Virus record (IMG/VR): IMGVR_UViG_640753023_000013
Length of the DNA: 40,738 nucleotides
Strand: one strand, 5' to 3'
DNA from: a virus
Lineage: Duplodnaviria > Heunggongvirae > Uroviricota > Caudoviricetes
The notes below the pieces were generated by a model. The model was not told the DNA's origin and did no database searches. It saw only the letters and a program-made list of their open reading frames with translations. This document shows, in pieces, positions 7,970 to 34,994 of this stretch. The position numbers were made by a program, and so were the translations under genes. The number at the start of each line of letters is the position of its first letter. Positions within the stretch are counted from its first letter, which is position 1.

Positions 7970-8041
7970 CGGGCGGCGGCACAGGGATGAGCCTTTAAAT
8001 AATTCTGTACAGATTGCAGACTGGGGGTGAATAGCGTACTA

Positions 8042-9030: not shown

Positions 9031-9039
9031 TGTGACATG

Positions 9040-9420
9040 TCACGCAACGCAATTATTACCGCGCCATGTAACATTTTTAATAATCTTATCAGCACCAAAC
9101 TCAACGTAAACAGAGCAACTGAAATGGAGTGTATAACCGCCATCAGTTGTTGCGTATGTGTTTGAATATATAGTATTACCAATTAGATTAGACGTAGTAT
9201 TATACGTTGTGGTTTGTGGTACGTTATAACTACCAGAGCTTGAGTAAACATACACTCTGTTTCCATCTGGAGATGTAAGCTCTCCCTGAGGATACCCCCA
9301 CTGCTGAACCATTGCGTCTATACTCTGCCCGCGCCACGTAAGCATATTTCTTTCAAACTGTGCAGCTGACTGGCATCCAACGAGAAGCATAAATCCAAAA
9401 ATCAAAAATACTTTTCTCAT
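9040..9420 (-). CDS. Prophage lipoprotein (candidate superinfection-exclusion or conversion protein)
   Basis: Signal peptide with lipobox LLVGC, Thr/Ser/Tyr-rich mature part; ATG at 9420 (track start 9456 rejected). Confidence 0.6.
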   Translation of the reverse strand: MRKVFLIFGFMLLVGCQSAAQFERNMLTWRGQSIDAMVQQWGYPQGELTSPDGNRVYVYSSSGSYNVPQTTTYNTTSNLIGNTIYSNTYATTDGGYTLHFSCSVYVEFGADKIIKNVTWRGNNCVA

Positions 9421-9639
9421 AATTACCCCTATCATGGAAAAACAGCACCAATCCACAAATTAACTAGTTATTTTATTATTCTTCCGAACAATACAATTCC
9501 GAATACTACAAAGCCGAACCATGCCGCTGCACGCAACAGAGATTCCAATTGAAACCCATTTTTATCAAAATGTATGAATAGCATAAAAACGCTGCACATA
9601 TTAGTACAATAAAAGTTATTTGAACCATCATATCTCCTT

Positions 9640-12114
9640 TTATTGCGGAGTGACATCCTGTGGTCGCCACCAGTATGTCTGGTTAAACTCTTTCTTCGAA
9701 CGTTGCTCCATTTTACGCAAATAGCCTGGTGAAAAATACTCCTGCATCTGGTTAAAGATCATGTGATCGAGAGCCGCCTTCAAGTACCAGAGATTCGCAC
9801 CAGGCATCAAACCTTTCCCCAGCTTCACCAGATCACCACCAGTCTGCTCACTCTTCCCTTCCACAGCATTTAACGGTATGCCCTGAGCAATCTTCACTAC
9901 GTCATCAACCAGACCAGCTACCGGGCCAAGCATCGACGCCAGCGCGCCGCTTCCGTACCTAGTGTGATCTGACAATAAAAAGTCACCGTAAAGGCCAAGA
10001 CCACCACCTTTCAGTAGAGCACCAAGCCAGAATTTTGCGGCATCTTCTCCTGTCATCTCTCGAGGATTACGACCAGACGCAAGGTCGTTAAGTTGCTGCG
10101 ACAAAGCGCCAAGAATGGTCGTACTGGCAATAAACGTCGCAATATATGCCGCACGCCCACCAGCAGACGGCATACCCATAGCGCGTGACCAGTGACGCAT
10201 AACAACCGAGATAGGGAACGATTTAAACAGGAAAACACTTCTCGTTAATTCACCTTTCCATGTTCCACGCTGAATACCAGAACCGGTTATCAGTTGCTCA
10301 CGTGCTCCCGGTGTAATAACAGCCATATCAACTTCTTCAGTTACGGCACCGAGCAGTTTACGCATTGCCTCAAATTTCACGCGTTCAGGCTCACCAAGAT
10401 GTTTAACTGCTGAATCAGGGATACGCATAATGCTTTCCGGTGTCAGCATCGTATTATTACCGTTCCCCCAGTCCTCCTGTTTCGCCAGCTTCCATACGCT
10501 CCAGTCTGTGTCAGTAATCCCTTTGCTTTTCAGGATACGAAAATCAGAGTCATCGAGGCTACGAAGGTCTGGTGTCCGTGACACTACTTCTCCCAGGCTT
10601 CCCATCATGGTTACGCCATAGGCGCGCTTGTGCGCATCTGACCATGCTGTAAGCCCACTGGCACGCATTACCGCCGTTGCCGCCCAACGAGACACTGACG
10701 GCCCCATATTATCCATCGCCCAGCGGTTAACGCTGCCAAGTAGAGATTCCATCGCCAGACCAGCGCGGCGCGCCCGCGCAAGTTCTGTACGGTTCGTTGG
10801 GTCCATAGCTTCAAGCTGGTTGCGGAATAACTGGTTCATTGGAAGGTTGGTAACCTTCGCAGACAGATACATGGTTCCAAGATCAGAGAACGATGACAGC
10901 AACGCGGATCCGAGTCTGCTGGCAACCAGCCAGTTGCGGATATTGTCAGACCATCGCGCGATGTGCGGATTCGCTACAGGCTGTGTCTTTCCGGAAATAA
11001 AGTTGTACAGATTCTCTGTGTTGTTCGCCAGCCGCTCGACTTTACCGGTTTTACTCGGGTTAGCTGTTGCCGTTTCTGCCTTCACCTGATCAAGAAGAGA
11101 GCGGAAAACATGATCGGGGTTTGGGCCATATGTTTCCACCAGTGCAATATCTTTACTGATACCTTCCAGGTGACCGACCATGATTTCCCATAGAGAGCGA
11201 TCGCCATAAAGTTGCTGATATTGCAGATAGGAATCTGCATCTTTGAAATGTATCTGTCGTGATGCATTACCACGGTTAGCACGTGCGCCGGAAATTCGCA
11301 TTCCGGTATCAGTAAGCTTATTCAGCCCACCAGTAGCGATCGTGTTATAAGCCTCTCCAAGAAATGAAGACAACTCGGCATCGTTCATCAGTTGTCCATC
11401 GGCTCGGATATAATATTTGCGATCCAGCTTACCTATAACATCGCTAACCCACTTATCCTTTGATACTGCCCCAACCTTTTCCATAGAATGATGTTGAGGG
11501 ATCCCCCAGTTTTCGAGATAGCCAATGTCCCCACCAGCATCATTAAACCGGCGGCGCAGCAGCTCTGTAACTTCTCTCCACGCCTTAGCACCGTTTCTTG
11601 CTTTAGCATTGCCAGTATTTTGCCCCCGCATTTCATATACCAGGTCACGTACGCCCGCTTCATCTTCAAACAGACCAAAAAAGCGAGGATCAACTGCTTC
11701 GAATGCCTCCTGCAATTGACTCAATGCATAATCACGGGTGGCTTTTGTTCTGGATTCAACAGAGAGGAAATTAGATTTACCGTCTGCATTAAAAGCTATA
11801 GTACGGTTAAGAGCGCCAAGTTTCCCATCAGCCCCTTGATAGCTATTGATAAATTTATCCAATCTCTGACGCGCGGCTATAGTGAGAGCCACACGACGTT
11901 TCTTTAATGCCGCTTCTCGCTGTAATTCTTCAGATGCCAATTGTGCTGCTCGATATAGCCGCTCTGATTCGGAAAGTTGTCGCCACGACATAGGGTCATC
12001 ACGAGCAATGGAGCGCATATTTCGATAAATGCGGTCTTCAATGTTCTGTATTTCTCGCGCCGTTAACATGCGCTGCGCCGCCTGCTGAACCGCTTGTATA
12101 CATTCCTGTCTCAT
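9640..12114 (-). CDS. Large internal virion (ejection) protein, 824 aa
   Basis: Size and position in the tail/ejection block; no motif recognised. Confidence 0.55.
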   Translation of the reverse strand: MRQECIQAVQQAAQRMLTAREIQNIEDRIYRNMRSIARDDPMSWRQLSESERLYRAAQLASEELQREAALKKRRVALTIAARQRLDKFINSYQGADGKLGALNRTIAFNADGKSNFLSVESRTKATRDYALSQLQEAFEAVDPRFFGLFEDEAGVRDLVYEMRGQNTGNAKARNGAKAWREVTELLRRRFNDAGGDIGYLENWGIPQHHSMEKVGAVSKDKWVSDVIGKLDRKYYIRADGQLMNDAELSSFLGEAYNTIATGGLNKLTDTGMRISGARANRGNASRQIHFKDADSYLQYQQLYGDRSLWEIMVGHLEGISKDIALVETYGPNPDHVFRSLLDQVKAETATANPSKTGKVERLANNTENLYNFISGKTQPVANPHIARWSDNIRNWLVASRLGSALLSSFSDLGTMYLSAKVTNLPMNQLFRNQLEAMDPTNRTELARARRAGLAMESLLGSVNRWAMDNMGPSVSRWAATAVMRASGLTAWSDAHKRAYGVTMMGSLGEVVSRTPDLRSLDDSDFRILKSKGITDTDWSVWKLAKQEDWGNGNNTMLTPESIMRIPDSAVKHLGEPERVKFEAMRKLLGAVTEEVDMAVITPGAREQLITGSGIQRGTWKGELTRSVFLFKSFPISVVMRHWSRAMGMPSAGGRAAYIATFIASTTILGALSQQLNDLASGRNPREMTGEDAAKFWLGALLKGGGLGLYGDFLLSDHTRYGSGALASMLGPVAGLVDDVVKIAQGIPLNAVEGKSEQTGGDLVKLGKGLMPGANLWYLKAALDHMIFNQMQEYFSPGYLRKMEQRSKKEFNQTYWWRPQDVTPQ

Positions 12115-12119
12115 TTAAT

Positions 12120-13922
12120 TTAACCTCTCAAGAAACACGCCACAGCGACATCAAACAGGCTGGAATCCTGTATTGCCTGCTCACTTTCCCTGTTCGCTTC
12201 ATCCAGTGCTTCACGCGCACTGCGCGATTGTGGATTACCATCATCATCCAGCACGGTGATTATCATGTCAGGTGATTCAAGCAGCGAGTCTTCAGCTATG
12301 CGCAAATCAATATCTCCTGCCTGATCTGACATCATTTTTTGTTCTGCCTGTTGCAATATTTTATCAGGCTCAAAAGGAGCTACTTCGTCTGGCGTCCTGA
12401 CCTCTGCTGTTTTATAGAATGAAACAGCCTGAGCATTAAGTTCACTTTCTGCCTGCTGTCTCCGAGCCAGTTCTGCTCGAGCTTCAAAAAACCGACCGCC
12501 AGGCTCATGCGGTGCCAACGCGTTACGAGAAAATTCCAGGCGTTCTTGTGCCTGCCGGATTCGTTGGTCAATATCGCGAAGTCTGGCCTGTTTATCTGAT
12601 CGAGCACGAGATAAAGCCTTACCGCTACCGGCTGGATCTTCTGCAAGAATTTGTGCGCGCTGTTCAGTGAGATTTTCAATAATTCGTTGGCTATTAGCGA
12701 TTTCAGACTGGTAAACCTGTCTATCGCCACGCGGCAAAAGCTGCGCGGCCTGTTCTTCAAGCAACCGATTTTCTATAGCGCGCGCCGTTACTCCATCATC
12801 TACAGATGACAGAGCCTCATTAACTGCCTGAGACAGCAGACTCTTGCGTCCAGGAATTTCACTGAAAGATGCAGACTCAACAATGCTGGCAACGTCTACA
12901 GGTCTCCCCTGGCTAACATCAGACATGGCTTTTCGCAGAGCCTGAATGTGCGAATTACGCGAAAGCACGTTGATCGGCACGCCGGGAGCAATATCAATTT
13001 CAGCATGATGAGCGGCATTCGCCGCCAGTGCAGCATCGATATCAACTGGTGAAAAATTTGGTGCGCTTGTAGACTCGCCGCGAGAGTTAATAAATCTGCC
13101 GACACCACCAAACGCCACCCCAAGAACAGCATCAATAGCAATTGCCTGTCGATCCAACACATCATACTGGTTAGCCATTTCGCTATAGCCACCATCACGA
13201 AGCGTTTTTGCAGTAAGCCCACGCTGTGCCATACCGAACGCAATATTTGTACCTGCGGCATAGGCAATATCTGGCGTTGCACGTACTGCTGTTGCTGCGG
13301 CGCGTCGCACTGAACTTTCACCCGTCCGCGCAAGCTGAGCCGCCACACCTTCCGCCAGCGCACCACCAGCACGTAACCAGAGGCTCATAGGGATCAGTGC
13401 TCCGGCACCAGCAGTAATACCCTGCACTAATCCCGCTTCCTGCGCCGTCCTGAAATCAACACCCTGTGCTGTAAGCCGTTCAAACTCAGAAAAACCCTGT
13501 AGAGAAGTTACCGCCGCAGCACCTCCGACCGGACCACCGAGCGTTGTACCGACAACAGCCTGCCCGCCCATATCGAACACCCCATAAAGGACCTGCCCGG
13601 CGGTTCCGGTTGTCGCGGCATCAGGCGTCAGCCGCTTAACCTGCTGCTCTGCTAGTTTTCTCTGCTCAGCAATGTATGAAACTGAAGTGTCATTGATCGA
13701 GGTGTTTTCGTTAACAAACTGAGCAATCGGGGATACGATTTTATCCATCCCTGCCCATAGCAACTGATCTGGCTTTGCCACCAGCCCGGAGTACAAACCA
13801 GACAATGCCGCTCCTACAGCATTGTCGAAAAAACCAACATCGCTGTTAAAGCCAGCTGGATTTGATGCTGCTTCGTCAAGCTGCTGATTCTGGTTTACTG
13901 GATTAAGGCCAAAGTAACTCAT
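12120..13922 (-). CDS. Internal virion (ejection) protein, 600 aa
   Basis: Synteny; Ala/Gly-rich central region. Confidence 0.55.
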   Translation of the reverse strand: MSYFGLNPVNQNQQLDEAASNPAGFNSDVGFFDNAVGAALSGLYSGLVAKPDQLLWAGMDKIVSPIAQFVNENTSINDTSVSYIAEQRKLAEQQVKRLTPDAATTGTAGQVLYGVFDMGGQAVVGTTLGGPVGGAAAVTSLQGFSEFERLTAQGVDFRTAQEAGLVQGITAGAGALIPMSLWLRAGGALAEGVAAQLARTGESSVRRAAATAVRATPDIAYAAGTNIAFGMAQRGLTAKTLRDGGYSEMANQYDVLDRQAIAIDAVLGVAFGGVGRFINSRGESTSAPNFSPVDIDAALAANAAHHAEIDIAPGVPINVLSRNSHIQALRKAMSDVSQGRPVDVASIVESASFSEIPGRKSLLSQAVNEALSSVDDGVTARAIENRLLEEQAAQLLPRGDRQVYQSEIANSQRIIENLTEQRAQILAEDPAGSGKALSRARSDKQARLRDIDQRIRQAQERLEFSRNALAPHEPGGRFFEARAELARRQQAESELNAQAVSFYKTAEVRTPDEVAPFEPDKILQQAEQKMMSDQAGDIDLRIAEDSLLESPDMIITVLDDDGNPQSRSAREALDEANRESEQAIQDSSLFDVAVACFLRG

Positions 13923-16432
13923 TGCGGAATATCTCCGGAGAATCTCTGACGCTTCTGTGTCAGATTAAGAACAACGGGAGAACCATCATCTTTCAGCAGA
14001 TAACCAGTACCAAGTTTCACCAGGTACTGACTATCGCCGTAACTTTGCAAACCATACTGACCAGGCGGTGTTTTTATCCCGGAGCCGACAACTTGTTCAT
14101 TCCAAGCCTGATTAACCTGCTTATCGAATTGCTCTGCAGACATTCCCCACGGCAAAAGGACATTCCCCATTCCGTTATAGTCATGCACACCACCTGTAGC
14201 TACGTTAACAGCCTGTTTCCAGACATCATTGTCAATTTCGCCTGATACCACGCCTTTTTTCGCCATCACACCAGCGTAATAATCCTTTGCGATCTCGTAT
14301 GCCATTGATGCGCCCTGAGCGTCACCAGCAAATGCATCCTTCACCATGTCAGAAAACTCAAGGCGAAGATCAGCATCTTTAGGCATCGGAATACCTTTCG
14401 CATCATCAGTACCTTTACGAGCCGCCGCGCCAGCAAGAATTGTCTGCGCAGCGGTTTCAGGAGACACGGAAACATCCGGATTAAACCAGTTTTTTTCTGC
14501 CAAAATACCACCAGGCTTATCCATCAGTATCCCAGCAACGGCAGCAGATGGAGCGTTGGCACTGATCTGCTGTAGTGCTGACATATACACCTGCCCACCA
14601 CCAGTGCTCTGCCTGATGGTATCGAGATATGCTGCCTGTTGGGAAACTGGAGCATCACGAAAGAAAACACCGATCTGATTGGCCTCGTCTTTGGAAAAGA
14701 ACGTCAGTGGAGTGCCATATGACTTAGCAAGGTCACTGACCTGAGCGGCACGCAAGGCAACGCTCTGTCCAAAGTTATCCTTATTGCTCATGTCGATAGG
14801 CTTTGCCTGTCCGGAGGCAAGAGAGAACTGCACAGGATCCGACTGCCGCTGCTTTATCACCTGATTTGCAGCCGAAACAACGTTGTCATAAAGAGTTGCG
14901 CGTGCCGCATACCCCTCCCCTGTATCACCAGTATCCGGGCGTAATTGCTCAACATATGCTGTAATGCTGCTTGTCGGCATGTTGCGGAAAGAGCCTATAT
15001 ACTGTCCGGCGATCTGCGTATTCTTAAACTCGGTATATCGCAGGTTTCCTTCTCTGACTCCATAAGCTGCAATAAAATCATCCTCACCAGGTGGGTTAGG
15101 AAATTCAATGCCACGCATATACGCAGCCGTCGCATCGCGAACCCGGCTGTCGAGCATCGTTTTATATTCAGCCTGCTGTTGTCTGGCTAGTGCATCAGTC
15201 TGTCGCAACACGCTGGCCTGATCTGATTCACTTAAAGCATCGAACCAGGCTACACCGGTATAACGTTTATTTTTTGTCGGTAGCTGAGAAAGCCCCAGCG
15301 CAGCACTAACACCTGCAGTTAACTGCTGATCACTGTATGGCTGGCTACCGTTTTCATGATGGATAATGGCTGCACAAAGCGCCTTCAGGGTATCAGGATT
15401 TGATGCATCGAGAGGCTCATCAGCAGAAACGCCAAGTTGTTCGCACACTGCTTTGATATACGACATAGTGTCATTTTTATCAGTAGGCGGTGCCCAGCGA
15501 TTAATTATCTCGCTGACGGTATCAATACCCTGCCGCTGATACGACATCAGGTTCCGCCCTAATGCACGAATACCGTGTTCAGGGGTTTCGAATTTGGCAA
15601 AGCGACCATCATCACCAGTCTGCCCAACCCACGGATTAGTTTTGCTGTATTCAAGATTGCCGGGGTTATTGTTGCGTATACCGCGGGTACGATCGGAAGA
15701 GCCACTATCTGCTACAGCACGGCGAGAACCAGCAGCAGTATCGCTTAACTCGCCGTTTTGCTGTCTTACCTGAAGATAGTTTGCTCCAATAGCATTTTGA
15801 GCAGTTGCTTTTGCTGTTGCTTCTTTAAACTCGATTTTCTTGGCCTGGATTTGCTCGTCACTCCAGCCATGTGCAATGCCGTAATCCTCAATTTGCTGGA
15901 AAGTTTGCTTATTAGCCAATACGTATGCGGCGTTGTCGCCATACAATGCTGCGGCATTTTTACCATTGTTCAGCAGCGTAGCCTGAAACTGGCCTTCTTC
16001 GTAGGCATTTATTTGCCCTATCTCGTGCCGCCCGGCCTGCGTAGTGAACTGAATGCGCTGCTGCTGCGCCTGCTGCATGAAAGCATTACGAGCCTGTTCA
16101 TCCGGCAGCGACATAGCCAGTTGTTCGACCTGAGCATCAAACTTCTGCGTATACTCCTGACCTTTTCCAATAGCATTTTTCCCTTTCAGGTTAAGCAAAC
16201 CTGTTTCAGGGTTATTCAGCAGATCGCTGCTTATCTGGCTTAAGCTAAGAGAAGCATCCTGAGCCATAGCAACATTCGCACGCTGTTTTGCCTGCGCAAT
16301 AATACCTGCATATTGCTCTGCAACATCGCCAAGTACATCACCGACATTTGGTGTCTGAAACGATGAGAATCCCTGCGTCGAAATCCCTCTGCTCTGAACC
16401 TGACGGCCCGATGTTGTTGGTACAACTGGCAT
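13919..16432 (-). CDS. Large internal virion protein, 837 aa, with conserved RGIRNNNPGNL motif segment
   Basis: Synteny; overlaps neighbours by 4 nt. Confidence 0.55.
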   Translation of the reverse strand: MPVVPTTSGRQVQSRGISTQGFSSFQTPNVGDVLGDVAEQYAGIIAQAKQRANVAMAQDASLSLSQISSDLLNNPETGLLNLKGKNAIGKGQEYTQKFDAQVEQLAMSLPDEQARNAFMQQAQQQRIQFTTQAGRHEIGQINAYEEGQFQATLLNNGKNAAALYGDNAAYVLANKQTFQQIEDYGIAHGWSDEQIQAKKIEFKEATAKATAQNAIGANYLQVRQQNGELSDTAAGSRRAVADSGSSDRTRGIRNNNPGNLEYSKTNPWVGQTGDDGRFAKFETPEHGIRALGRNLMSYQRQGIDTVSEIINRWAPPTDKNDTMSYIKAVCEQLGVSADEPLDASNPDTLKALCAAIIHHENGSQPYSDQQLTAGVSAALGLSQLPTKNKRYTGVAWFDALSESDQASVLRQTDALARQQQAEYKTMLDSRVRDATAAYMRGIEFPNPPGEDDFIAAYGVREGNLRYTEFKNTQIAGQYIGSFRNMPTSSITAYVEQLRPDTGDTGEGYAARATLYDNVVSAANQVIKQRQSDPVQFSLASGQAKPIDMSNKDNFGQSVALRAAQVSDLAKSYGTPLTFFSKDEANQIGVFFRDAPVSQQAAYLDTIRQSTGGGQVYMSALQQISANAPSAAVAGILMDKPGGILAEKNWFNPDVSVSPETAAQTILAGAAARKGTDDAKGIPMPKDADLRLEFSDMVKDAFAGDAQGASMAYEIAKDYYAGVMAKKGVVSGEIDNDVWKQAVNVATGGVHDYNGMGNVLLPWGMSAEQFDKQVNQAWNEQVVGSGIKTPPGQYGLQSYGDSQYLVKLGTGYLLKDDGSPVVLNLTQKRQRFSGDIPQ

Positions 16433-16444
16433 CTTATTATCCCC

Positions 16445-16984
16445 TTATCGACCGGTTGGAGTGCCAACAGCAGCAGAAATCGGCGCAGCCTTCTGAGAGA
16501 ACGGGCTCCACGTTCCGCCGCCCATCTGGTATGCACCGTATGCTTTTAGTGGTGCCGTTAACAAAGTGCTGGTCATCGATGATTTAGCAGCCGACTGAGC
16601 AGCAGCCCCCTGTGCCTGAGCATTCATTCCCTGAACCTGATACCCATATGCCTCACGCTGAGCATTATTCACTGTCGTTAACGCATCAAGAGTGCCGAAC
16701 TGAGCATTATCCGCAAAAACGTCAAGAGCTGTTCCGCTACTTAATTCCGCACCGGTAGCCCCCATAGTGGCCGCCGCAGTGCCTGAGCGTTGACGCATTT
16801 CACGACGACGCTGATCCGCTTCAATATTCCCACGATTGATTGAATCCTGTGCCTGAGCTTCAGCAATTTCAGCATTCCGATCAGCTATGGCTGACTGGTA
16901 TTTTGCCTGCTTGCTCTGGCTGTACATTGACGCGGCTGTGGATGCCACTGTGACGGCAACCAAAGCGATGGCTGGGTTACACAT
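16445..16984 (-). CDS. Virion internal protein (T7 gp14-like by position)
   Basis: 179 aa with N-terminal hydrophobic segment. Confidence 0.5.
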   Translation of the reverse strand: MCNPAIALVAVTVASTAASMYSQSKQAKYQSAIADRNAEIAEAQAQDSINRGNIEADQRRREMRQRSGTAAATMGATGAELSSGTALDVFADNAQFGTLDALTTVNNAQREAYGYQVQGMNAQAQGAAAQSAAKSSMTSTLLTAPLKAYGAYQMGGGTWSPFSQKAAPISAAVGTPTGR

Positions 16985-17448: not shown

Positions 17449-19919
17449 CAGAATCCCCCAACAGTAAGGCGAGGAATAACGGCAAGAACAGACAGTGGCA
17501 ACGGGTCAAGCTGACGGATTCTTACACGTCCGTTTTTGCCCCAGTTACTGTCCAGTTTCACTTCTACTTTTCCGGTAGCATCATCAACAGGATCATCGTA
17601 GAACTCGAATTCACGCTGTGGATATTCGTACCATTTACCGCCGGGCGTAGTCGCCCAGATGCCGCGACTGGCATTCACAACCAGAGTAACGGACGGGATC
17701 ACCTGTTTTTTGTCCAGCAGCGTTTCCTGTCCGTTAATGTTGATATCCAGTGTTTCGAATTCAGCAGTTATTGGCAGGCCGATATGCACTACAGCCCCCG
17801 GTGATTCCAGCGTGACGGCACCTCCGGAAACAACTTTCTGTGGCTCCACGTTCGCATCAGAAAGAATGTTTACGGTCTGTCCTTCAAGATGAGACAGGCC
17901 TCCAAATGTCCGGCGCGCCATCTGCCAGTTCGTGGTGGTCACATTCCTGAGGGATGGCGGGACGTTCCTGTTAGCACGAACCACTACAGCGGTATTGCTG
18001 GTTAAAGAAATAATGTCGCAACGTAATTCTTTTGACACTTCATCGCCAGTATCAGGATCAGTTCCGGTATAAGGGAACTGTAGTTGCGCACCGACATCAC
18101 TACTGGTGAAGTACGCACCACCAGAAACACTGATTGTATATTCCGCGCGGTAATCCCATTCACCAGAACCACCAGTGATGGTCATCGTTCTGTCAGACGT
18201 ATTTCTTCCATCATAGCTAAGGCCAGAATCAACAAAGAAAGCATCTTCATCGCTGGTAAATAAACGGCTGGACAGTCTCTCGATGTATCTCACTGTTTGC
18301 CCGTTAACGGTTCTGTTAACGACGAAATACACCGCATCTTCATTGCCTTCGCTGATACTGCATGTGCTTTCATATTTTCCGGTACTGGACTGTGGTGCCC
18401 ATGCAAAAACCTGTTGATCACGCAAATAGGTCATCACCAGTAATTTACCGTCATCACGAATACAGAAGGCGCTGGAGTAAGGGACAATCGAGAAGCACCA
18501 GTCAACAATGCTGTGCTTCTGAAAAAGATGATTGGCAAGGATGGTCAGGTCATTCCCCTGATAGCCGTCAACATCGAATGAGTAGGCCAGATCACGGACA
18601 ACACTGCCTTTCTCCTGGACGAACAGAGCAATATTCGCCACGGCAATTGGTGGGACATTGCTCGAGCCATTTGATCCCTGAGAGCTGAATGCAAATGATG
18701 ATGGGGTTAACACTTTGTTCTGGTCGCCGGTGATGACGTACTCACCTCCGGAAGTCAGCGCCACCAGCGAACCAACATCAATCAGGTGGCGGATCTCATT
18801 AACCTGACGTCCGGCATAGGTGTAGATAATTCTGTCGTCATCCTGCGTAGGATTGCTTTTGCCAAAATCCTTATAATCACCGGTACGGCTGGCCCAGATA
18901 GTCTGAGGGAACGCAGTCGATGCGGCGAAGTAAAGACGTTGTTGATAATAAACAACAGTGCCAGGATAACCATTAACACTGTTCCAGGCATATTTAGCCC
19001 ATTTATAGCTGGCATTATCCTCGCCAACTACCTGCGAAGGGATATAGGAAATCACCTCGGCAGTTGCAGTAGTTCCATTTGCAGCAGTGATACGGGCAAT
19101 GCCAAAACCACTGTGCAGATATTCCCACTCAATGCCAATATCATCATCACCGGATCCGCCCCAGCCATCCCATGATGTGCCTTCTGTATGCGAAGGGCGC
19201 AAAGTACCTGTTTTGCCTGCTGTAACGGCGCGATAGTAGTTACTGTCTGCACGGCGAATATCGCCAATCGACGTACTCTTACTGGTTTCCCATACCGGCA
19301 CTGAATCCACTGCAGGCTGTTCCAGATAGAACAATTTGCCTACCTGCTCCGCGCCAAAAATAGAGGCGCTTGCCGTTAACGTAATTGTCCCGGTGCTGGC
19401 GCTGGCATAAACCGTCACTGACTCGTCAATATTGATATCTTCAAATGGCCCGTTCTTCGTTACCACATCAACCAGTTGCCAGTTGTCATGCGCATAGCGA
19501 CGCAACTCTTTCGGCGGGTATGCCGGATGAACCAGCGTAAGCACGTCGGCGCTTTGCGTGAATTTAATTCGGAACAGATCGGCTTCAGTATATGGCGTGG
19601 CAATTTCATAAATAACATTGCTGCTGTTCAGCACCAACGCACCATCTTTGATAACGCGCATGTACTGGTGTCCGAACTCCAGAGCATAGGTCTGAACCGT
19701 CGAGAACTGGAACGGGATCAGGCGGCATTTCCGATTTGGGTATTTGGCGGCACCGACAAAACGCGTACCAGGTCGATTCTCAACGCCGCCATACTGCCGC
19801 ACGATAAAGTTATCGCACTTGCGCAAAGCTACCTGGTACTTCGCCATGTCGATACGACCGTACAACGACGGTCCAATCTCACCACCGGCAAAGCTGGGCT
19901 GGATCCAACTGATAGCCAT
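17448..19919 (-). CDS. Tail tube/nozzle protein (tail tubular B-like), 823 aa
   Basis: Position after the gp11-like gene; size typical of podovirus tail tube B. Confidence 0.6.
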   Translation of the reverse strand: MAISWIQPSFAGGEIGPSLYGRIDMAKYQVALRKCDNFIVRQYGGVENRPGTRFVGAAKYPNRKCRLIPFQFSTVQTYALEFGHQYMRVIKDGALVLNSSNVIYEIATPYTEADLFRIKFTQSADVLTLVHPAYPPKELRRYAHDNWQLVDVVTKNGPFEDINIDESVTVYASASTGTITLTASASIFGAEQVGKLFYLEQPAVDSVPVWETSKSTSIGDIRRADSNYYRAVTAGKTGTLRPSHTEGTSWDGWGGSGDDDIGIEWEYLHSGFGIARITAANGTTATAEVISYIPSQVVGEDNASYKWAKYAWNSVNGYPGTVVYYQQRLYFAASTAFPQTIWASRTGDYKDFGKSNPTQDDDRIIYTYAGRQVNEIRHLIDVGSLVALTSGGEYVITGDQNKVLTPSSFAFSSQGSNGSSNVPPIAVANIALFVQEKGSVVRDLAYSFDVDGYQGNDLTILANHLFQKHSIVDWCFSIVPYSSAFCIRDDGKLLVMTYLRDQQVFAWAPQSSTGKYESTCSISEGNEDAVYFVVNRTVNGQTVRYIERLSSRLFTSDEDAFFVDSGLSYDGRNTSDRTMTITGGSGEWDYRAEYTISVSGGAYFTSSDVGAQLQFPYTGTDPDTGDEVSKELRCDIISLTSNTAVVVRANRNVPPSLRNVTTTNWQMARRTFGGLSHLEGQTVNILSDANVEPQKVVSGGAVTLESPGAVVHIGLPITAEFETLDININGQETLLDKKQVIPSVTLVVNASRGIWATTPGGKWYEYPQREFEFYDDPVDDATGKVEVKLDSNWGKNGRVRIRQLDPLPLSVLAVIPRLTVGGF

Positions 19920-20847: not shown

Positions 20848-20897
20848 ATACACTCCTGCAATAAAGGGGCCGAAGCCCCTTGTCTGATTCGCGAGGC

Positions 20898-21233: not shown

Positions 21234-21243
21234 CGATATCACC

Positions 21244-21681: not shown

Positions 21682-21732
21682 CTTCTTTCTCCATTAGTGG
21701 GTCTGTTACGACCCACAGGTTAATAACAGGCG

Positions 21733-22725: not shown

Positions 22726-22733
22726 TTCCTCTC

Positions 22734-23435
22734 TTATTTGCCATAAAGCACTTCGGCCGCACTACGCTGGCCTTCATTACTACCGGAGACCATGCCATCT
22801 TCAGACATCGCCTTTCCGATTTTCACGAACGTTTTGACCAGATCAGGGTGATTACCCAGTCCGGTGGTGTTCAGATATTCTTTGAGTTCAGGTGTCCCGA
22901 ACTGGTCAAGCGCACGCTGTGCGGCGCTAAGGTTAGAAATCAACTTGTCGCCACCGATTTCTTTGTCAGCTTTTACATCCGCAGCCCACTGCTCGGTTGT
23001 TTTCTGCCAGGCTTCTGCCTGGCGCTGCTGAACACCTGCCAGAATCTTCGGATAAGCATCAACCAACTTTTGCGCTTGCTCGTTGGTCAGGTTAAGTTCT
23101 CGCGCCACCGGCTCGAATTCCTTCAACGCTTCTGTATCCAGCTCTACGCCTTCGGCAGCCTGAAACTCGTACTTCTCAGGCGCACCCTCTGGTTTATCGC
23201 CGTCCTTTTTTTCATCCTGCTTATCGTTTTCAGGCTTTTTGTCATCAGCAGGTTTATCGCCATCAGCAACAGGTTGTGGCTTATCACCTTCCTGTTGTGA
23301 TGGATCACCAACTGGAGCAGGGTTATCACCTGCAGGCGCTGACGGTTCTGACGCAGCCGGAGCTGTTCCACCATCGACTGGTTGCTCATTGCAAAGACGG
23401 CGATACAGCAAACGCTCAAATAAATTCATGATCAC
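22734..23435 (-). CDS. Scaffolding protein
   Basis: Acidic/Lys-rich, Pro/Ala-rich low-complexity N-terminal half, between portal and capsid genes. Confidence 0.6.
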   Translation of the reverse strand: MIMNLFERLLYRRLCNEQPVDGGTAPAASEPSAPAGDNPAPVGDPSQQEGDKPQPVADGDKPADDKKPENDKQDEKKDGDKPEGAPEKYEFQAAEGVELDTEALKEFEPVARELNLTNEQAQKLVDAYPKILAGVQQRQAEAWQKTTEQWAADVKADKEIGGDKLISNLSAAQRALDQFGTPELKEYLNTTGLGNHPDLVKTFVKIGKAMSEDGMVSGSNEGQRSAAEVLYGK

Positions 23436-23728
23436 TCCTGTTCACTGGCCTCTTTGGCCATCTTCAAATACTGTTCAGGGCAATGCGCCATAACGCGCTG
23501 AAACAGCTCCAGCGCCAGATTGCGTTGCCCCTCATTAAATGCCATTGCCATAGCGTCCATCGGAGAGATAGCGGAAAACACCCGGCCTTTCTCCAGCACA
23601 GACCAGACAACGCGACGCCCCTGTTCACTGCTCATGACAAAGCGAATGTCATCAATTTCACGCTGCGCCATGTCACGTTGCTTACGGGCGTTTTCTTCTT
23701 TCAGTTGATCGTCTTCGTAATCTGTCAT
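23432..23728 (-). CDS. Hypothetical head morphogenesis protein
   Basis: 98 aa, overlaps portal stop and scaffold start. Confidence 0.5.
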   Translation of the reverse strand: MTDYEDDQLKEENARKQRDMAQREIDDIRFVMSSEQGRRVVWSVLEKGRVFSAISPMDAMAMAFNEGQRNLALELFQRVMAHCPEQYLKMAKEASEQE

Positions 23729-25404
23729 TGTGATTGCCCACCCTGACCACTAACTGCATTCGCCATAGCTGACAAAACACTCGGATCCGAAGTTTTAGCT
23801 TCGCTTAGCGTCTTGGCACCCTGTGCCGCCGCCATCCCCATCGCCATCATTTGTTGCTGCTGTTGCTGCTGTGCCCGTTGCTGGCGAGCCTGCTCAACCT
23901 GTTCCTGCGGAACAATGACGGTTGGAGACACTCCGGACATATCAGCGAATGCATCGATCGCCTGATCAACGTTGAGTTTGTCGAGAGCTTCTGGTTTCCC
24001 TTGCGCAAGTTGACCAATGAAGTTAACCGTGGACGCCAGACTGGACAGGCCGATAGACTTCTGCGCCTGAGCCATGACGGAAATGTATTCGACCTTCAGG
24101 GGCATGCCTTCCATCGCGTCAGGCGGTGGCGGCAGCATGTTTTTACGCACCATCATCGAGAAAGCGCGGTCAATGAGAGGATTAAGACATTCGTCGTTCA
24201 GACGCTCCAGAACCGGCCCCAACATCAGAAGTTTTTCTTCTTTCATTTCGATCACCGCTTCAACAGGCATCGAGCGGGTATTGATGTTCTGCAACATCAT
24301 GAACAGATCGACGAAGTAGGCGCTGTTGATGGTCTGCCGCGTATCTTGGATGTCGCTGATTAAATCCGCAGTGTTAGGGTTAACCTGATAAACAGGCCTT
24401 AATCCTTCCTGTCCAGTCAGTTGATCTACGTATGTGACGCCACCAGGAAGTAACGAAACACTCTGTGTTCTGAGGGTGGTAGGGGCAACCATCGGAGGGT
24501 TTGTCACTTTGTCGATGATCTGCGACTTGCGCTTCTGAAGAAGCTGCAATGCCTTAACAGGTCCAAGCGCCAGCATACCCGGGCATGATGATCCATAAAC
24601 ATCCTCGCCGTTAACTTCCCAGCGCGGAGCCATAATTGGAAACTCATCGAATCCGGACTCACGCAACAACTTGTCGTTATCGCCGCCAACCTCGTAATAA
24701 ACCGATTTGAATGGCTTGTTCTTGCTATCCAGCTTCGATGTATCGCGGTCAATGTTCGGGTAAACCGAATGCATCACTTCGATCCACTTCTCGTAGGTGC
24801 CGCTTTCCCACATGCTTTTTACGGATTCGCTGACGTTATTTAGCCCGAACTCCTGAACAAGCTGACGAACAGTCATAGAGAACTTGCGAAAACAGGTGTC
24901 AACACTGCCACGAGGTGAGTTAGCCAGGTAGTAACTGCCTATCGGGAATGGCATTGTGCGAATGATGTCCTCGTCATCCTCCAGCACTGCCATTGCACCA
25001 GTGCTGTATGTGCCGAGGCTTCCGTATAACTGCGGCAGCGACTGATAGAGATTCGACTTATTGAACATATCGTTCATGCGGTTCTGCACCGCCTCAAGCC
25101 ACAACTTAACAGGGCCATAATCCATCATTTCAGGATCTGGCGTAGCCAGGCGAAACCACGGACGCGCGGGGCTTGTGATGCCTGACATCATGCCGCTGGC
25201 GAGAGTGCGCGCCGCCATAGTCCCGGTCGAATCAATAATACGTGTATTGCGTCGATCGTTACGGTTGACCTCAGAAGTCAGAAAGCGGGAACCACGCGGG
25301 TTGATATAATCACTCAACTCGCGCCAGTGCGGCTCGAACGACTGACGCTCGCTTTCAAGTTGTGCGAACTGTTTGTTCAATCGCTCTTTAGTTGTTTCCG
25401 CCAT
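23725..25404 (-). CDS. Portal protein
   Basis: 559 aa, GGAG RBS, position and size. Confidence 0.7.
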   Translation of the reverse strand: MAETTKERLNKQFAQLESERQSFEPHWRELSDYINPRGSRFLTSEVNRNDRRNTRIIDSTGTMAARTLASGMMSGITSPARPWFRLATPDPEMMDYGPVKLWLEAVQNRMNDMFNKSNLYQSLPQLYGSLGTYSTGAMAVLEDDEDIIRTMPFPIGSYYLANSPRGSVDTCFRKFSMTVRQLVQEFGLNNVSESVKSMWESGTYEKWIEVMHSVYPNIDRDTSKLDSKNKPFKSVYYEVGGDNDKLLRESGFDEFPIMAPRWEVNGEDVYGSSCPGMLALGPVKALQLLQKRKSQIIDKVTNPPMVAPTTLRTQSVSLLPGGVTYVDQLTGQEGLRPVYQVNPNTADLISDIQDTRQTINSAYFVDLFMMLQNINTRSMPVEAVIEMKEEKLLMLGPVLERLNDECLNPLIDRAFSMMVRKNMLPPPPDAMEGMPLKVEYISVMAQAQKSIGLSSLASTVNFIGQLAQGKPEALDKLNVDQAIDAFADMSGVSPTVIVPQEQVEQARQQRAQQQQQQQMMAMGMAAAQGAKTLSEAKTSDPSVLSAMANAVSGQGGQSQ

Positions 25405-25418
25405 TTCAATGACTCCGG

Positions 25419-25625
25419 TTACTGACCAAGTAGCGTTTTACCGCTGGTATTAGCGGTTGATGTGTCGCCCTGAGAACCGGTAAGCAGCGTAGAACTACGA
25501 CCAGCAGCAGCGCGACGGCGACGTGTTTCTTCGTCGCGGGCATCAACAACGGCGGCATCCTGCTCCTGTGGTGCTGCCTGAACTTCTGGTGTTGCAGGCA
25601 CTGATGGTGAGCTACCCATGCACAT
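25419..25625 (-). CDS. Small hypothetical protein upstream of portal
   Basis: 68 aa, GGAG RBS; the overlapping 25406-25645 frame looks spurious. Confidence 0.35.
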   Translation of the reverse strand: MCMGSSPSVPATPEVQAAPQEQDAAVVDARDEETRRRRAAAGRSSTLLTGSQGDTSTANTSGKTLLGQ

Positions 25626-25715
25626 ATCAATGACTCCGTACGCAATTAAATTATTACCAATTTAACCACATATGATTTATTTATCGTAGATAGTTGACAT
25701 TTAACGCACAAATTA

Positions 25716-25730
25716 TTACCTTTCAGGTAG
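25716..25730. promoter_or_regulatory. Operator palindrome TTACC-TTTCA-GGTAg (site 3, one mismatch), next to a TTGACA -35-like hexamer at 25694-25699
   Basis: Same core and flank as site 1. Confidence 0.5.
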
Positions 25731-26052
25731 CTAAAGAGTTCATTCCGGTTACTAACCTGACTGGCTTGTCGTTAAATTGAACAGGTGGAGTGAGCTTTTG
25801 TTTTGAGCAGTACGGCGTATGGCACATGCGCCGATAGCGGTCTGGATACGTTTAAGGGGCACCCTCCCTTGCTCGGGCAAACGAACCAGGTAGCCGGAAT
25901 GTGCAAGTCGAGCGGTTTTATTCCGCGCACGGGGATTCACCATCCCGGCGATTCGGTGTGACGCCTCGGAAGAGACGAGGGTACAACGATGAGAGCATTT
26001 ATGGAGCCGCGACAAAGTGTGGCGCCTTAACAGGCTAAGTGCTCTCAGCGTT

Positions 26053-26129
26053 GTGGCATTAGCTCAGTTGGACAGAGCAACCGCCTTCTAAGCGGTTGGT
26101 CGCGGGTTCGAATCCTGCATGCCACGCCA
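26053..26129 (+). tRNA. tRNA-Arg (anticodon TCT, reads AGA), phage-encoded
   Basis: Cloverleaf: acceptor GTGGCAT/ATGCCAC, anticodon stem ACCGC/GCGGT with loop CTTCTAA, T-loop GGTTCGAATCC, genomic CCA; differs from E. coli argU in acceptor and anticodon stems. Confidence 0.9.
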
Positions 26130-26292
26130 GAATCACGCCTAAGGACCGTGATGCCAGAAGTTCCAGGTACTTGGCGGTGATGGTTTCCCTTGAAGGACTA
26201 TCACCGCTCTTTTTACAGCAGGACGCCATTGCGATGACTTCATGCTGTAAACCCGTACAGCCACGGAAGGCATAACTCATTGCTTCCAGTTC

Positions 26293-26316
26293 GCCCGGTT
26301 CGCCGGGCATTTTTTT
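26293..26316 (+). terminator. Rho-independent terminator after the tRNA
   Basis: GCCCGG-ttcg-CCGGGC followed by atttttt. Confidence 0.65.
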
Positions 26317-26327
26317 AAGGTGAGATT

Positions 26328-26708
26328 ATGAACGACCAGCAAATCGAAAAAGAAATTGTTGAGAAAGGCAAAACGGCACCGCGAATCACTCCTCAGCACA
26401 TCGAAGACGTGATTAAAAGCGAGCATTACTTTACTGCTTATGATGGACGTAATGGTGCAATTTCCAGCAACGAATATTGTGGCAGAGAAAAACCAGAAGA
26501 AGGTGATCGTGATTTATCACCATTGAAGTTGCTCACTTTCTGCGTACTGGTGCTGAAGAATGGCTTCACCGTCACCGGAGAGAGCGCCTGTGCAAGCCCG
26601 GAAAATTTTGATGCAGAAATTGGTCGGAAGATTGCCCGGCAGAATGCTGTAAACAAAATCTGGATGCTTGAAGGTTACTTGCTGAAGCAGAAGTTAAGCG
26701 AGCAATAA
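26328..26708 (+). CDS. Phage protein of the gp49/gene-66 type (unknown function)
   Basis: 126 aa on the opposite strand to its neighbours; family assignment from recalled similarity only. Confidence 0.55.
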   Translation: MNDQQIEKEIVEKGKTAPRITPQHIEDVIKSEHYFTAYDGRNGAISSNEYCGREKPEEGDRDLSPLKLLTFCVLVLKNGFTVTGESACASPENFDAEIGRKIARQNAVNKIWMLEGYLLKQKLSEQ

Positions 26709-26712
26709 CACC

Positions 26713-26724
26713 GTGACATGTCAC
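26713..26724. repeat. Palindrome GTGACATGTCAC (copy 2 of 3)
   Basis: Perfect 12-bp palindrome 5 nt after the stop of the 26328 gene. Confidence 0.7.
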
Positions 26725-26728
26725 AAAC

Positions 26729-26755
26729 AGCCAGCCTATGAGCTGGCTTTGTTTT
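26729..26755 (+). terminator. Rho-independent terminator
   Basis: AGCCAGC-ctatga-GCTGGCT followed by ttgtttt. Confidence 0.65.
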
Positions 26756-26798
26756 ATCCTCACCAGAGGATATCAACGACATTATCCCCACCAGCGGA

Positions 26799-28274
26799 TT
26801 AAGCATAGGGATCGTAATCTGTGATGGCCTTGCCTTGCTGGTTCTGCTGCCCGGGAATTCGCAGACGCTTCGACACAGGGAACGCAAACGTCAGCAGTAG
26901 CGCATCGCCTTTACCCGGCGAACGCCCAAGTCGCTCTTTGATATCTTCCTTCGGTTCGATAACGATTTTACCGTCCACGCGAACTTTGTACTCTGCCGCC
27001 GACAGGTCGTCCGCTGTTTCCTGGTCATCCAGCATGCCGCCCAGCCTCAGCCATGTCTTGCATGAGTTGAACATCTCCCCACGCTTGTTAAGCATCTGCG
27101 GGTCAGTAGACGCGCCACCGAACGGAACAAGTTGCCATGTACGCCCCCAACCGTCACCGATTGACTTCAGACCGGTACCGTAACCGAAGTCGATGAACAC
27201 CGCGTCAGCCTGGTACTGGTCTTCAAAGTCAGCGATACGCTTCGCCATAATCAGATCGTCGGTGGTCTTGTTGCCAGTCCACAGCACCTTACTGTGTAGC
27301 CCCTGCCGCAGGTATATCACAGCGTCATCAACGCCGGAGTATGCCGGGTCAACGCCGATTATCACCGGAGAATGTGCAACCTGCGCAGCGGTTACCACCC
27401 GTTTCATTGCCTCGTCAGTAAGACCGGTAGGGATAAACTGCAATTCAGATGCATCAGGGAATATGCCACGCACACGGATTTTAACGAAGTCGCTGTCTTC
27501 CCCGTAGTCATCAACCCATTTCTGCAACTGCTGTTTGTTGGTACCTTCCACCGTCCGACTGTCAATCTGCGCAGTTTTCCAGCGGTGTTTATACTTGCGG
27601 AAACATTCACGGAAACGTCCGGTATTACGCGTCGGGTTTCCGAACGCCACCCAGATAATCTCAGTGTCTTCGTCCGTTAGCGCACCCTCGGCAACTTCCC
27701 ACACCAGATCCGCAATGTTCGACGCTTCATCGAATACCACGATGATGCGTTTGCGCTCGTTGTGTAGTCCGGCGAATGCCTCAGTGTTGTGCTCAGACCA
27801 GGGTATTGCGTCAGCCCGCCACCGCTTGTCGTGCCCTGGGTCATTGCTGTACATCGCGGTAGCAGTACAGGTAAACCAGTCTTTCGTGATAGCAAGGTTC
27901 GACCACTTGATAATTTCCGGCCAGGTCTTCGTTCGTAGCTGGTTGTCGGTGTTGGCGGTCACCACGACCTTACAATCCTCGCAAGTGGACATGCCCCAGT
28001 TGATCAGCATTGAGATGAATGCGGATTTACCAATACCGTGACCAGAAGCGCGTGCCAGCATAAGCGGCTGATAGCGCGTCTCTGGATTCTGCAGGTGATC
28101 ACGTATCTCTCGGAACGCATCAGCCTGCCATTGACGTGGGCCGGTAGCATGTGCCAGTTCAGTCCCCTCTTCCCCCCACGGGAACGCATAGAGGGCATAG
28201 CCAAGCGGATCGTGAGTGAACCCTGCAATATCCTCGATCAACTGCTCTTCAGGAGATAACGCTGTATCTGTCAC
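26799..28274 (-). CDS. Terminase large subunit
   Basis: Walker A-like GHGIGKS, 491 aa, GTG start overlapping terminase small stop. Confidence 0.85.
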   Translation of the reverse strand: MTDTALSPEEQLIEDIAGFTHDPLGYALYAFPWGEEGTELAHATGPRQWQADAFREIRDHLQNPETRYQPLMLARASGHGIGKSAFISMLINWGMSTCEDCKVVVTANTDNQLRTKTWPEIIKWSNLAITKDWFTCTATAMYSNDPGHDKRWRADAIPWSEHNTEAFAGLHNERKRIIVVFDEASNIADLVWEVAEGALTDEDTEIIWVAFGNPTRNTGRFRECFRKYKHRWKTAQIDSRTVEGTNKQQLQKWVDDYGEDSDFVKIRVRGIFPDASELQFIPTGLTDEAMKRVVTAAQVAHSPVIIGVDPAYSGVDDAVIYLRQGLHSKVLWTGNKTTDDLIMAKRIADFEDQYQADAVFIDFGYGTGLKSIGDGWGRTWQLVPFGGASTDPQMLNKRGEMFNSCKTWLRLGGMLDDQETADDLSAAEYKVRVDGKIVIEPKEDIKERLGRSPGKGDALLLTFAFPVSKRLRIPGQQNQQGKAITDYDPYA

Positions 28275-28867
28275 TGATTACCATCCTGACGTTCTTTGAG
28301 TCGCTTCCTGGCTGCTGCTATGCGATCAGCAATTGTCACTTTCACATTAACATCCAGGCGTTCTTTGAATGCGTTGACGTCGACGTGCTTACCAATCAGT
28401 TCGAGGTTCTTCACCTTGTCAGGCCATTTAATTTTTTTGAGGATTGTCTCTATCGAATCCTCGTTCATGTTCATGATGGTCGATGACAGATCAAAGCCAC
28501 TAAGCGTAGTGCGCCAGATTTTCGGCCACTCGCGGATTGGCTTAAGGCTCCCATCGTCGTTGAGGATGTCGATCACGTCCATCTGGTCGATCTCCACCAG
28601 GCGCATGAGAACGTAATCAGCACTGACGCGCATTCGTTTGTTGCGCTCCTCCATCAACTCGGCAATCCGTTTTTGAATGCGTTCATCGCGCATCATGACA
28701 CTGGCTTTAACTGCCGCTGTATTTGGGGAGAATCCTGCGTTAATCGCTGCCTGAGTCTGGTTTTCAGGCGTTTTGATGTATGACTGGCAATAAGCCTCCT
28801 GCATTGCTGTGAGCGGCTTAAATTGCGTTGATTTGCGTTTATAGGTTTTAGGTTCAGCAGGCATCAT
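28271..28867 (-). CDS. Terminase small subunit (start revised from the TTG at 28945)
   Basis: ATG at 28867/28864 with GGTGG RBS; region 28868-28945 holds an operator palindrome and a terminator. Confidence 0.55.
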   Translation of the reverse strand: MMPAEPKTYKRKSTQFKPLTAMQEAYCQSYIKTPENQTQAAINAGFSPNTAAVKASVMMRDERIQKRIAELMEERNKRMRVSADYVLMRLVEIDQMDVIDILNDDGSLKPIREWPKIWRTTLSGFDLSSTIMNMNEDSIETILKKIKWPDKVKNLELIGKHVDVNAFKERLDVNVKVTIADRIAAARKRLKERQDGNQ

Positions 28868-28884
28868 AACCACCATGGTAATAG

Positions 28885-28899
28885 TTACCGTTGTGGTAA
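28885..28899. promoter_or_regulatory. Operator palindrome TTACC-GTTGT-GGTAA (site 4, perfect), 18 nt upstream of the terminase small start
   Basis: Perfect half-sites. Confidence 0.55.
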
Positions 28900-28910
28900 T
28901 AGTACCATGC

Positions 28911-28936
28911 AAAATAAAGCCGCCATAGTTGGCGGC
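28911..28936 (-). terminator. Rho-independent terminator on the minus strand just upstream of the terminase genes
   Basis: GCCGCC-aactat-GGCGGC followed by tttatttt on the minus strand. Confidence 0.55.
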
Positions 28937-28941
28937 AGTAT

Positions 28942-29154
28942 TCAAAGTCCATCAAATTCATCGTAAAAACTCTCGTCAAGATACCCTTCCCATTTACCGC
29001 GAATGAAAATTACATCCTCGCCGCAAGGGTGCTGACTGTCGATAACTATATCCCTCCTGGCGCAACCATACTTATGCATGAGAAATTTAACCTCTTTCGG
29101 AAAATTTGCTGAGTTATCTCTCATATCTTCAAGGTCGTAGCGTATTTTTGGCAT
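28942..29154 (-). CDS. Hypothetical protein
   Basis: ATG at 29154 with GAAGG RBS (track starts at a GTG at 29175). Confidence 0.45.
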   Translation of the reverse strand: MPKIRYDLEDMRDNSANFPKEVKFLMHKYGCARRDIVIDSQHPCGEDVIFIRGKWEGYLDESFYDEFDGL

Positions 29155-29163
29155 AACACCTTC

Positions 29164-29175
29164 GTGACATGTCAC
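29164..29175. repeat. Palindrome GTGACATGTCAC (copy 3 of 3)
   Basis: Perfect 12-bp palindrome at the junction of the 29172-29519 and 28942-29154 genes. Confidence 0.7.
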
Positions 29176-34982: not shown

Positions 34983-34994
34983 TTGCCAGATAGA

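Follow-up and report, generated by a model that had tools for sequence, protein, structure and literature searches.

A 12-bp palindrome at operon ends of an epsilon15-like prophage is a probable operator of the phage's own gp49-family protein

The 40,738-nucleotide prophage record IMGVR_UViG_640753023_000013 (the window, by which we mean that whole stretch of DNA) carries the perfect 12-bp palindrome GTGACATGTCAC at three places, and this palindrome is the form taken in Uetakeviruses by a more widespread motif, GTGAC-N2-GTCAC. The prophage is of the phiV10/epsilon15 type (Uetakevirus), and the minus strand of the window corresponds to the plus (late) strand of phiV10 and epsilon15. The motif is conserved among relatives, lies at operon 3' ends near terminators and co-occurs with a gene of the gp49/p55 family. 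We consider it probable that GTGAC-N2-GTCAC is the cognate operator of the phage's own gp49/p55-family protein, placed at operon boundaries. That gp49 binds these sites, and in which direction it would affect transcription, we infer from sequence comparison.

Results

Three isolated copies of the palindrome in the window

An exact search found GTGACATGTCAC at positions 9032-9043, 26713-26724 and 29164-29175 and nowhere else in the window, confirming the threefold repeat that an earlier note on this DNA had pointed out. The three copies compare with 0.01 expected, and none of 100 dinucleotide-preserving shuffles reached three. When up to two mismatches were allowed, one extra match was obtained (position 23665), which is the chance level. 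Among the perfect 10- and 12-bp palindromes of the window, GTGACATGTCAC alone occurs more than once. As the flanks of the three copies are unrelated, save for one common base per side at two of the sites, an origin of the copies from longer duplicated DNA, which the earlier note had held out as a trivial explanation, was ruled out.

The copies mark the 3' ends of late-strand units

Read on the late (minus) strand, the three copies stand at the 3' boundaries of units arranged head to tail, namely the early-right operon ending in the gp49-like gene, the terS-terL unit and the virion operon, and all three boundary sites face convergent accessory genes. Site A (29164-29175) overlaps the TGA stop (29172-29174, minus strand) of the gp49/phiV10p55-family gene (29172-29510, minus strand; 112 aa, phrog_536), which is the last gene of the early-right operon, is annotated as a "transcriptional regulator" and encodes the proposed binder. 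Site B (26713-26724) has the terL stop with a bidirectional terminator on one side, while on the other side there ends a convergent accessory gene of the Phage_gp49_66 / Sf6 gene 66 family (26328-26708, plus strand), whose TAA stop is 4 nt from the site; the unit that ends at site B has the large terminase gene, terL (26799-28274, minus strand), as its final gene, and the terminator hairpin (26729-26748, listed on the plus strand) abuts the palindrome. Site C (9032-9043) covers the TGA stop (9040-9042, minus strand) of a phrog_3716 gene (9040-9456, minus strand) with which the virion operon ends. It lies 0-1 nt upstream of a terminator hairpin, AGGCCGCTTTCGCGGCCT followed by TGTTTTT (9014-9031, minus strand), which comes directly after it on the late strand.

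An intrinsic terminator is present near each site, adjacent at B and C and about 215 bp away at A in the window. Downstream of site A there follow a small gene of 70 aa (phrog_1541; 28942-29154, minus strand), whose ribosome-binding site GAAGGTG comes directly after the palindrome, then the intrinsic terminator GCCGCCaactatGGCGGC plus TTTATTTT (28919-28936, minus strand), which closes the early-right unit, then repressor-type operators of the form TTACC-N5-GGTAA, and finally terS. The terminators are at the same spots in the epsilon15 and phiV10 annotations. Tested as a terminator, the palindrome itself gave -1.2 kcal/mol and has no U-run; the neighbouring hairpins are the true terminators. 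A consensus scan found no canonical promoter-like sites upstream of terS or of the tailspike gene.

The earlier note had viewed these positions from the plus strand, describing two copies as directly following the stops of accessory genes. This is true of the site at 26713 with respect to the 26328-26708 gene, but the site at 9032 is 23 nt past the stop of the 8775-9008 gene, with the terminator hairpin between the two. The late strand is more telling, as the TGA stops of two minus-strand genes (29172-29510 and 9040-9456) fall within the palindrome. Likewise, the sites at 26713 and 29164 do bracket terL, terS and the small gene at 28942-29154, but the 26328-26708 gene, which had been counted within this block, is outside it.

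Conservation of the palindrome beside variable DNA

Rather than being absent from homologous phages, a possibility that had been raised earlier, the 12-mer recurs at corresponding positions, three per genome, in each of the five reference genomes checked. Epsilon15, Tyrion and SPN1S have it unchanged at all of them, and phiV10 and PAT1 keep all three sites with one copy each carrying one mismatch (at site A in phiV10). The structural genes of these five phages and the window are about 77-82% identical.

In 80 IMG/VR contigs with a close gp49 homologue (1.3 Mb), the palindrome begins at the final base of the gp49 coding sequence in all but three (77 of 80), with variable flanking DNA, and a second copy follows 2.2-2.9 kb downstream, after terL, in most of the relatives long enough to contain it. 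These 80 relatives hold 134 GTGAC-N2-GTCAC motifs, all except one with the AT centre. Site B borders on at least 10 classes of accessory genes, mostly with a TAA stop exactly 4 nt away (GTGACATGTCAC-GGYG-TTA), while site A abuts six downstream classes and site C four upstream classes. The copies are therefore located exactly at mosaic junctions, as the earlier note had supposed when it spoke of module boundaries. However, their appearance is that of conserved islands with a function, beside which variable DNA has to end, and not that of recombination signals, because only 12 bp are kept, their sequence is strictly conserved, and they are tied to one protein family across unrelated phages.

The terminator stems beside the palindrome show compensatory changes between phages, and the terminator hairpin at site C is kept in phiV10, epsilon15, Tyrion, SPN1S and PAT1, while the palindrome itself is constant. 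A constant palindrome beside covarying stems argues that its sequence is read by a protein and not as an RNA structure.

A degenerate fourth copy was seen on the stop codon of Rz, with which the lysis operon ends, in epsilon15 (record L002; 26618-26629, GTGACATGGCAT) and SPN1S (L004; 26722-26733, GTGACATGTCAT), and it is not present in the window (1267 region). The phrog_1541 gene, which follows site A in the window, occurs in about 30 of the 80 relatives; in phiV10-type phages, there is an 8-codon remnant only, with a shared 3' end (gatgaatttgatgg...tga). In the epsilon15 type (L002, 39612-39650; same place in L003-L005), the left half of site A, GTGACA, is followed after 17 nt by TAAATT, a possible sigma-70 promoter that would start transcription just before the terminator. 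TAAATT is conserved with a variable spacer, and this putative promoter is absent from the window/phiV10 type.

The motif accompanies gp49-family genes in unrelated phages

Distant gp49-like homologues (32-44% identity) were found in unrelated phages that carry the same motif with other central dinucleotides, usually over the homologue's own stop codon. Homologue and motif occur together in P2-like, N15-like, Vibrio, Serratia, Salinivibrio, Enterovibrio and Pseudomonas elements; by chance, about 0.01 motifs per 10 kb would be expected. In a Yersinia P2-like phage, GTGACGCGTCAC is on the TGA stop of the homologue, and P2-like loci have a terminator 60-90 nt past the site at the stop. GTGAC(TG/CA)GTCAC occurs three times in each of the N15-like phages phiKO2 and PhiR46_1, once on the stop, Vibrio phage K308 has three motif copies, and a Vibrio cyclitrophicus phage has one, again on the stop. 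Further cases came from homologue representatives at 50% clustering: three copies in the Salinivibrio representative, two tandem copies 23 bp apart in that of Serratia, one on the stop plus another in a Pseudomonas fluorescens-group contig, and GTGACATGTCAC itself on the stop in Enterovibrio. No perfect motif copy was found in two representatives, a 3.9-kb metagenomic contig and an Aeromonas phage. Lambda has neither the family gene nor the motif, and a scan of genome contigs with the Pseudomonas homologue gave no match.

The linkage also holds in the reverse direction. The exact 14-mer TGTGACGCGTCACA was found in 114 IMG/VR stretches, and family members were identified there with a hidden Markov model of an alignment of the family. 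A member is encoded in 52 of these stretches (46%), with E values down to 1e-41, and the stop codon is inside the motif in 28 of the 36 stretches checked. Gene and site thus form a linked cassette.

Two arrangements of another kind were encountered. Three high-GC viral contigs (L176, 4739-4900; L104, 3347-3380; L207, 7475-7499) contain dense arrays of GTGACGCGTCAC mixed with GTGACGTCAC, and no gp49-family open reading frame was found in their fetched DNA; these arrays may belong to an unrelated iteron system or to a more divergent binder. In the contig L179, two motifs (3341-3352 and 3707-3718), each preceded by an identical ggCTATAATcaattt, lie upstream of two genes at about +1 to +12 of promoters with a strong -10 element, TATAAT, which is an operator-like position. 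No gp49-family open reading frame was found in this 7.4-kb stretch.

The gp49-like protein

Searches of Pfam, NCBIfam and PDB sequences with the 112-residue gp49-like protein gave no match. An alignment of 53 diverse members displays a conserved basic helix at the N-terminus with the pattern A-RK--QR-R. Next comes the core, strand-helix-helix, with -VEL-L---E---L ... PY---EY---LIR-D, and the C-terminus is rich in cysteine (C-KCG--LP-GC-G---GD--C). Structure prediction gives a confident model in which a putative ribbon-helix-helix (RHH) fold is joined to a Cys-rich zinc ribbon, and the protein is presumably dimeric. As the half-site is constant and the centre is free to vary between lineages, the DNA may be recognized by a conserved element of the protein such as the basic helix.

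When the family profile was compared with PDB, the best sequence matches were TraR and YbiI of the DksA/TraR group, with E values of 0.065-0.07, which are below significance and serve as a lead only; the match spans the long helix and the Cys-rich region. DksA/TraR proteins are C4 zinc-finger proteins that bind in the secondary channel of RNA polymerase. The gp49 family differs from them in that the last CxxC is not conserved and the aligned helix belongs to the predicted RHH core. The corresponding Pfam model, zf-dskA_traR (PF01258, CxxC-N17-CxxC), gave no match, the cysteine pattern being partly conserved. A Foldseek search against PDB returned nothing significant, none of the Pfam RHH models captures the family, and the gp49-like protein had no Pfam or PDB match to Q proteins. 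Homology to MatP was looked for and not found, with a BLASTP E value of 13 and an hhalign probability of 0.2% against a shallow MatP profile built from near-identical sequences only; MatP (PF06303/PF17414) was absent from the PDB profile matches and had no Pfam match among the 53 members.

Likeness of the motif to the host sites of MatP and SlmA

The half-sites GTGAC and GTCAC are the same as those of matS (GTGACRNYGTCAC). However, matS is 13 bp long with a 3-bp spacer (RNY), the phage motif has a 2-bp spacer, and there is no GTGAC-N3-GTCAC in the window or in five Uetakevirus genomes. In addition, matS occurs once per 35 kb in the Ter region of the chromosome, whereas the phage-borne sites occur about once per 13 kb, and the four-helix bundle and coiled coil of MatP have no counterpart in the gp49-like protein, which shares no sequence or profile similarity with MatP. 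The site of SlmA, a TetR-type host protein, is a 12-bp palindrome as well (GTGAGTACTCAC) with the same outer GTGA...TCAC; it matches the phage motif at 8 of 12 positions and differs at positions 5-8, of which 6-7 are free between lineages in the phage motif. The phage motif thus has the half-sites of matS at the length of the SlmA site, yet it is neither of the two. In Vibrio phage K308 (L007), the sequence GTGACACCGTCAC at 19491-19503 fits the 13-bp matS consensus and covers the TGA stop of a small gene; this phage also has three 12-bp sites.

Other features near the sites

TTACC-N5-GGTAA repeats occur in the window at 6608-6623, 8040-8056, 25714-25729, 28871-28900, 33896-33911, 34993-35009 and 35055-35071. 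In the epsilon15 annotation, their counterparts are the "repressor" sites of the immunity region and those ahead of terS, gp3 and the tailspike gene, which suggests direct repressor control of late operons. In the phiV10 annotation (L001, 41-715), the TTG start given for terS makes the gene run through the terminator hairpin and these operators (window 28864-28945). The real start is probably the ATG at window position 28867 or 28864, which would give the length of the epsilon15 TerS, 198 aa. A 65-nt direct repeat of 75% identity (30107-30171 and 30696-30760) covers the starts and ribosome-binding sites of two adjacent Ead/Ea22-like genes on the minus strand and looks like a local gene duplication.

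Discussion

The suggestion that the palindrome binds a host or phage regulator is supported by our comparisons, and the evidence favours a protein encoded by the phage itself. According to the mechanism that we propose, gp49 would be produced from the early-right operon, and its dimers would then occupy the boundary sites and control the crossing of these boundaries by RNA polymerase. In the version that we prefer, the bound dimers would act as a roadblock or insulator, strengthening the operon ends against read-through and against convergent transcription of accessory genes. A tightly bound protein would by default be a roadblock in both directions, and it would insulate the late units from each other. 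The roadblock version is favoured by the operator-like position of the L179 motifs, near +1 of TATAAT promoters, and by the habit of RHH proteins to act as repressors. Known RHH regulators of phages and plasmids and their operators (P22 Arc and Mnt, CopG, MetJ, and antitoxins such as TacA and ParD) likewise combine a short dyad-symmetric site with a co-occurring gene. They differ from the present pair in that the gp49 family has an extra N-terminal basic helix and a C-terminal zinc ribbon, and in that its sites are at operon 3' ends and on its own stop codon instead of at its own promoter.

A site-specific, Q-like antitermination that couples the units is nearly as likely as a roadblock. We keep it so close because the gene is at the early-late junction in most lineages, a terminator comes after the site at A and C and in the P2-like loci, no other candidate for a late regulator is evident, the zinc ribbon is faintly TraR-like, and promoter-like sites were not seen upstream of terS and the tailspike gene. 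The arrangement resembles that of lambda Q, qut and tR' in that the early-right operon ends, where early and late genes meet, with the regulator gene, which is directly followed by a presumed DNA site and then by a terminator. It differs in that there is no homology to the Q family, no conserved promoter or sigma-dependent pause is found at the site (in the window/phiV10 type), and the phage motif has further copies at later operon ends. A bolder idea, which we regard as possible though rather unlikely, is that the gp49 family represents a new class of DNA-tethered, site-specific termination modulators, with a dimer on GTGAC-N2-GTCAC at operon ends. The TraR-like zinc ribbon would then act on the arriving polymerase, causing either read-through of the terminator, as in a Q-like late switch without Q, or forced release.

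Several observations weigh against gp49 acting through these sites as a boundary operator. The geometry of site and terminator is uneven: as read on the late strand, the hairpin follows the site at A and C but precedes it at B, and the sequence alone thus gives no verdict between a block and read-through. RHH repressors do not usually have their operator at the 3' end of the gene that encodes them. About half of the motif-bearing viral stretches have no family open reading frame in the fetched DNA, and eight of those hold several motifs; another binder, or a gene beyond the fetched stretch, is possible in these cases. Finally, the known hosts of the family are almost all in the clade that carries MatP, whose matS half-site is identical, with Pseudomonas as the sole exception. 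Cross-talk of MatP at the phage motif is therefore conceivable.

This last point leads to the idea that the site is bound by a MatP- or SlmA-type nucleoid protein of the host, by which the phage would position or organize its DNA or titrate the host factor. The half-sites of matS, together with the length and outer GTGA...TCAC of the SlmA site, speak for it, as do the hosts of the motif-bearing phages (almost all Enterobacterales, Vibrionales, Aeromonadales and Alteromonadales) and the one true 13-bp matS-consensus site in K308. Nevertheless, we find a host binder improbable, given the 2-bp spacer in place of 3 bp, the lack of the N3 form in the Uetakevirus genomes and the different SlmA positions 5-8. 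Moreover, the motif is welded to the stop codon of one phage gene, for which a host-factor site would have no reason, Uetakeviruses integrate at guaA, outside the Ter region, and one carrier is assigned to Pseudomonas. Pseudomonas is not known to carry MatP. A variant in which gp49 is itself a phage analogue or competitor of MatP, organizing or bridging phage DNA via matS-like sites, is also less likely than the termination modulator described above. No more promising than a host binder are recombination joints, that is, short boundary sequences used for module exchange. The position of the sites exactly at mosaic breakpoints, with the many neighbour classes at B, A and C, would agree with such joints, and RecT/exonuclease-type functions are encoded by the phage. 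However, 12 bp is very short for homologous exchange, the motif recurs with another central dinucleotide in unrelated phages alongside one protein family, and the perfectly conserved dyad symmetry fits recognition by a protein better; breakpoints are in any case expected to pile up beside any indispensable element.

A signal at the level of RNA or translation, such as a hairpin or stop-start element at gene ends serving RNase III or other processing or translational coupling, seems very unlikely to us. The site does lie over stop codons, the next ribosome-binding site or start often follows within 1-20 nt (site A of the window, the N15-like phages, K308), terS follows 23 nt after it in Salinivibrio L092, and annotators predicted RNase III sites elsewhere in epsilon15. 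Still, the hairpin would consist of just 4 bp with a 4-nt loop, and its stability of -1.2 kcal/mol and the absence of covariation, with a half-site that is invariant across lineages, led us to reject an RNA hairpin or RNase III element; besides, site B is past the terminator, between convergent genes, and the symmetry reads alike on both strands. We give just as little credence to pac-like sites, recognized by the terminase or for packaging. It is true that terS-terL lies between sites A and B, and that K308 and Salinivibrio L092 each have a copy in the gap separating an HNH gene from terS, 19-23 nt ahead of the terS start, which is a frequent location of cos or pac. Site C and the sites of the P2-like and N15-like phages, on the other hand, are far from terminase genes, and the linkage is to gp49 and not to a terminase type. 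A cos site or genome terminus came into question since the phiV10 and Tyrion records open inside site A, but Tyrion is circularly permuted with terminal redundancy, which makes record ends at the palindrome arbitrary and led us to reject this candidate.

The CRP/FNR-type site proposed in the earlier note has next to no probability. CRP recognizes TGTGA-N6-TCACA and FNR recognizes TTGAT-N4-ATCAA, with the TGA/TCA cores 8 bp apart in both. The GTGA and TCAC cores of the palindrome resemble CRP half-sites, but the TGA/TCA gap is 6 bp (GTGA-N4-TCAC) in all copies, 2 bp short for both proteins; counted between GTGA and TCAC, the cores are 4 bp apart where 6 bp would be needed. The outer T and A are not conserved, no promoter-like site was found beside the palindromes, and the positions at gene and operon 3' ends near terminators are unlike those of CRP/FNR sites, which lie upstream of a regulated promoter or overlap it (about -41.5, -61.5 and so on). 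An activator site for late promoters was likewise ruled out, as sites B and C are 0.4-2.4 kb from the next late-strand gene starts, and the possible promoter GTGACA-17-TAAATT is confined to the epsilon15 type.

The motif-protein pair appears to be undescribed within the limits of the literature searched. The annotation of the epsilon15 record gives repressor, IHF, RNase III and integrase sites and not the palindrome, no phage paper came up in full-text searches for the 12-mer or variants of it, and no functional study of epsilon15 gp49 was found in the literature. The pair belongs to a known kind, that of small phage DNA-binding regulators with dyad-symmetric operators. What is unusual is the placement of the operator, over the stop codon of its own gene and where operons end, the new combination of domains, and the identity of the half-site with that of matS.

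A widespread family without a Pfam model, phrog_536, is now paired with a precise DNA motif, so that its function can be directly tested. Its members are found in epsilon15-like, P2-like and N15-like phages and also in numerous Vibrio prophages and related ones. In epsilon15/phiV10-like prophages, the motif can serve as a simple marker by which operon ends and the borders of inserted accessory genes can be annotated. Since the half-site is the same as in host matS, one may also ask, and test, whether there is cross-talk with chromosome-organizing proteins. The pair could also explain how early and late units are separated or coupled in epsilon15-type phages, which have no recognizable Q-like factor.

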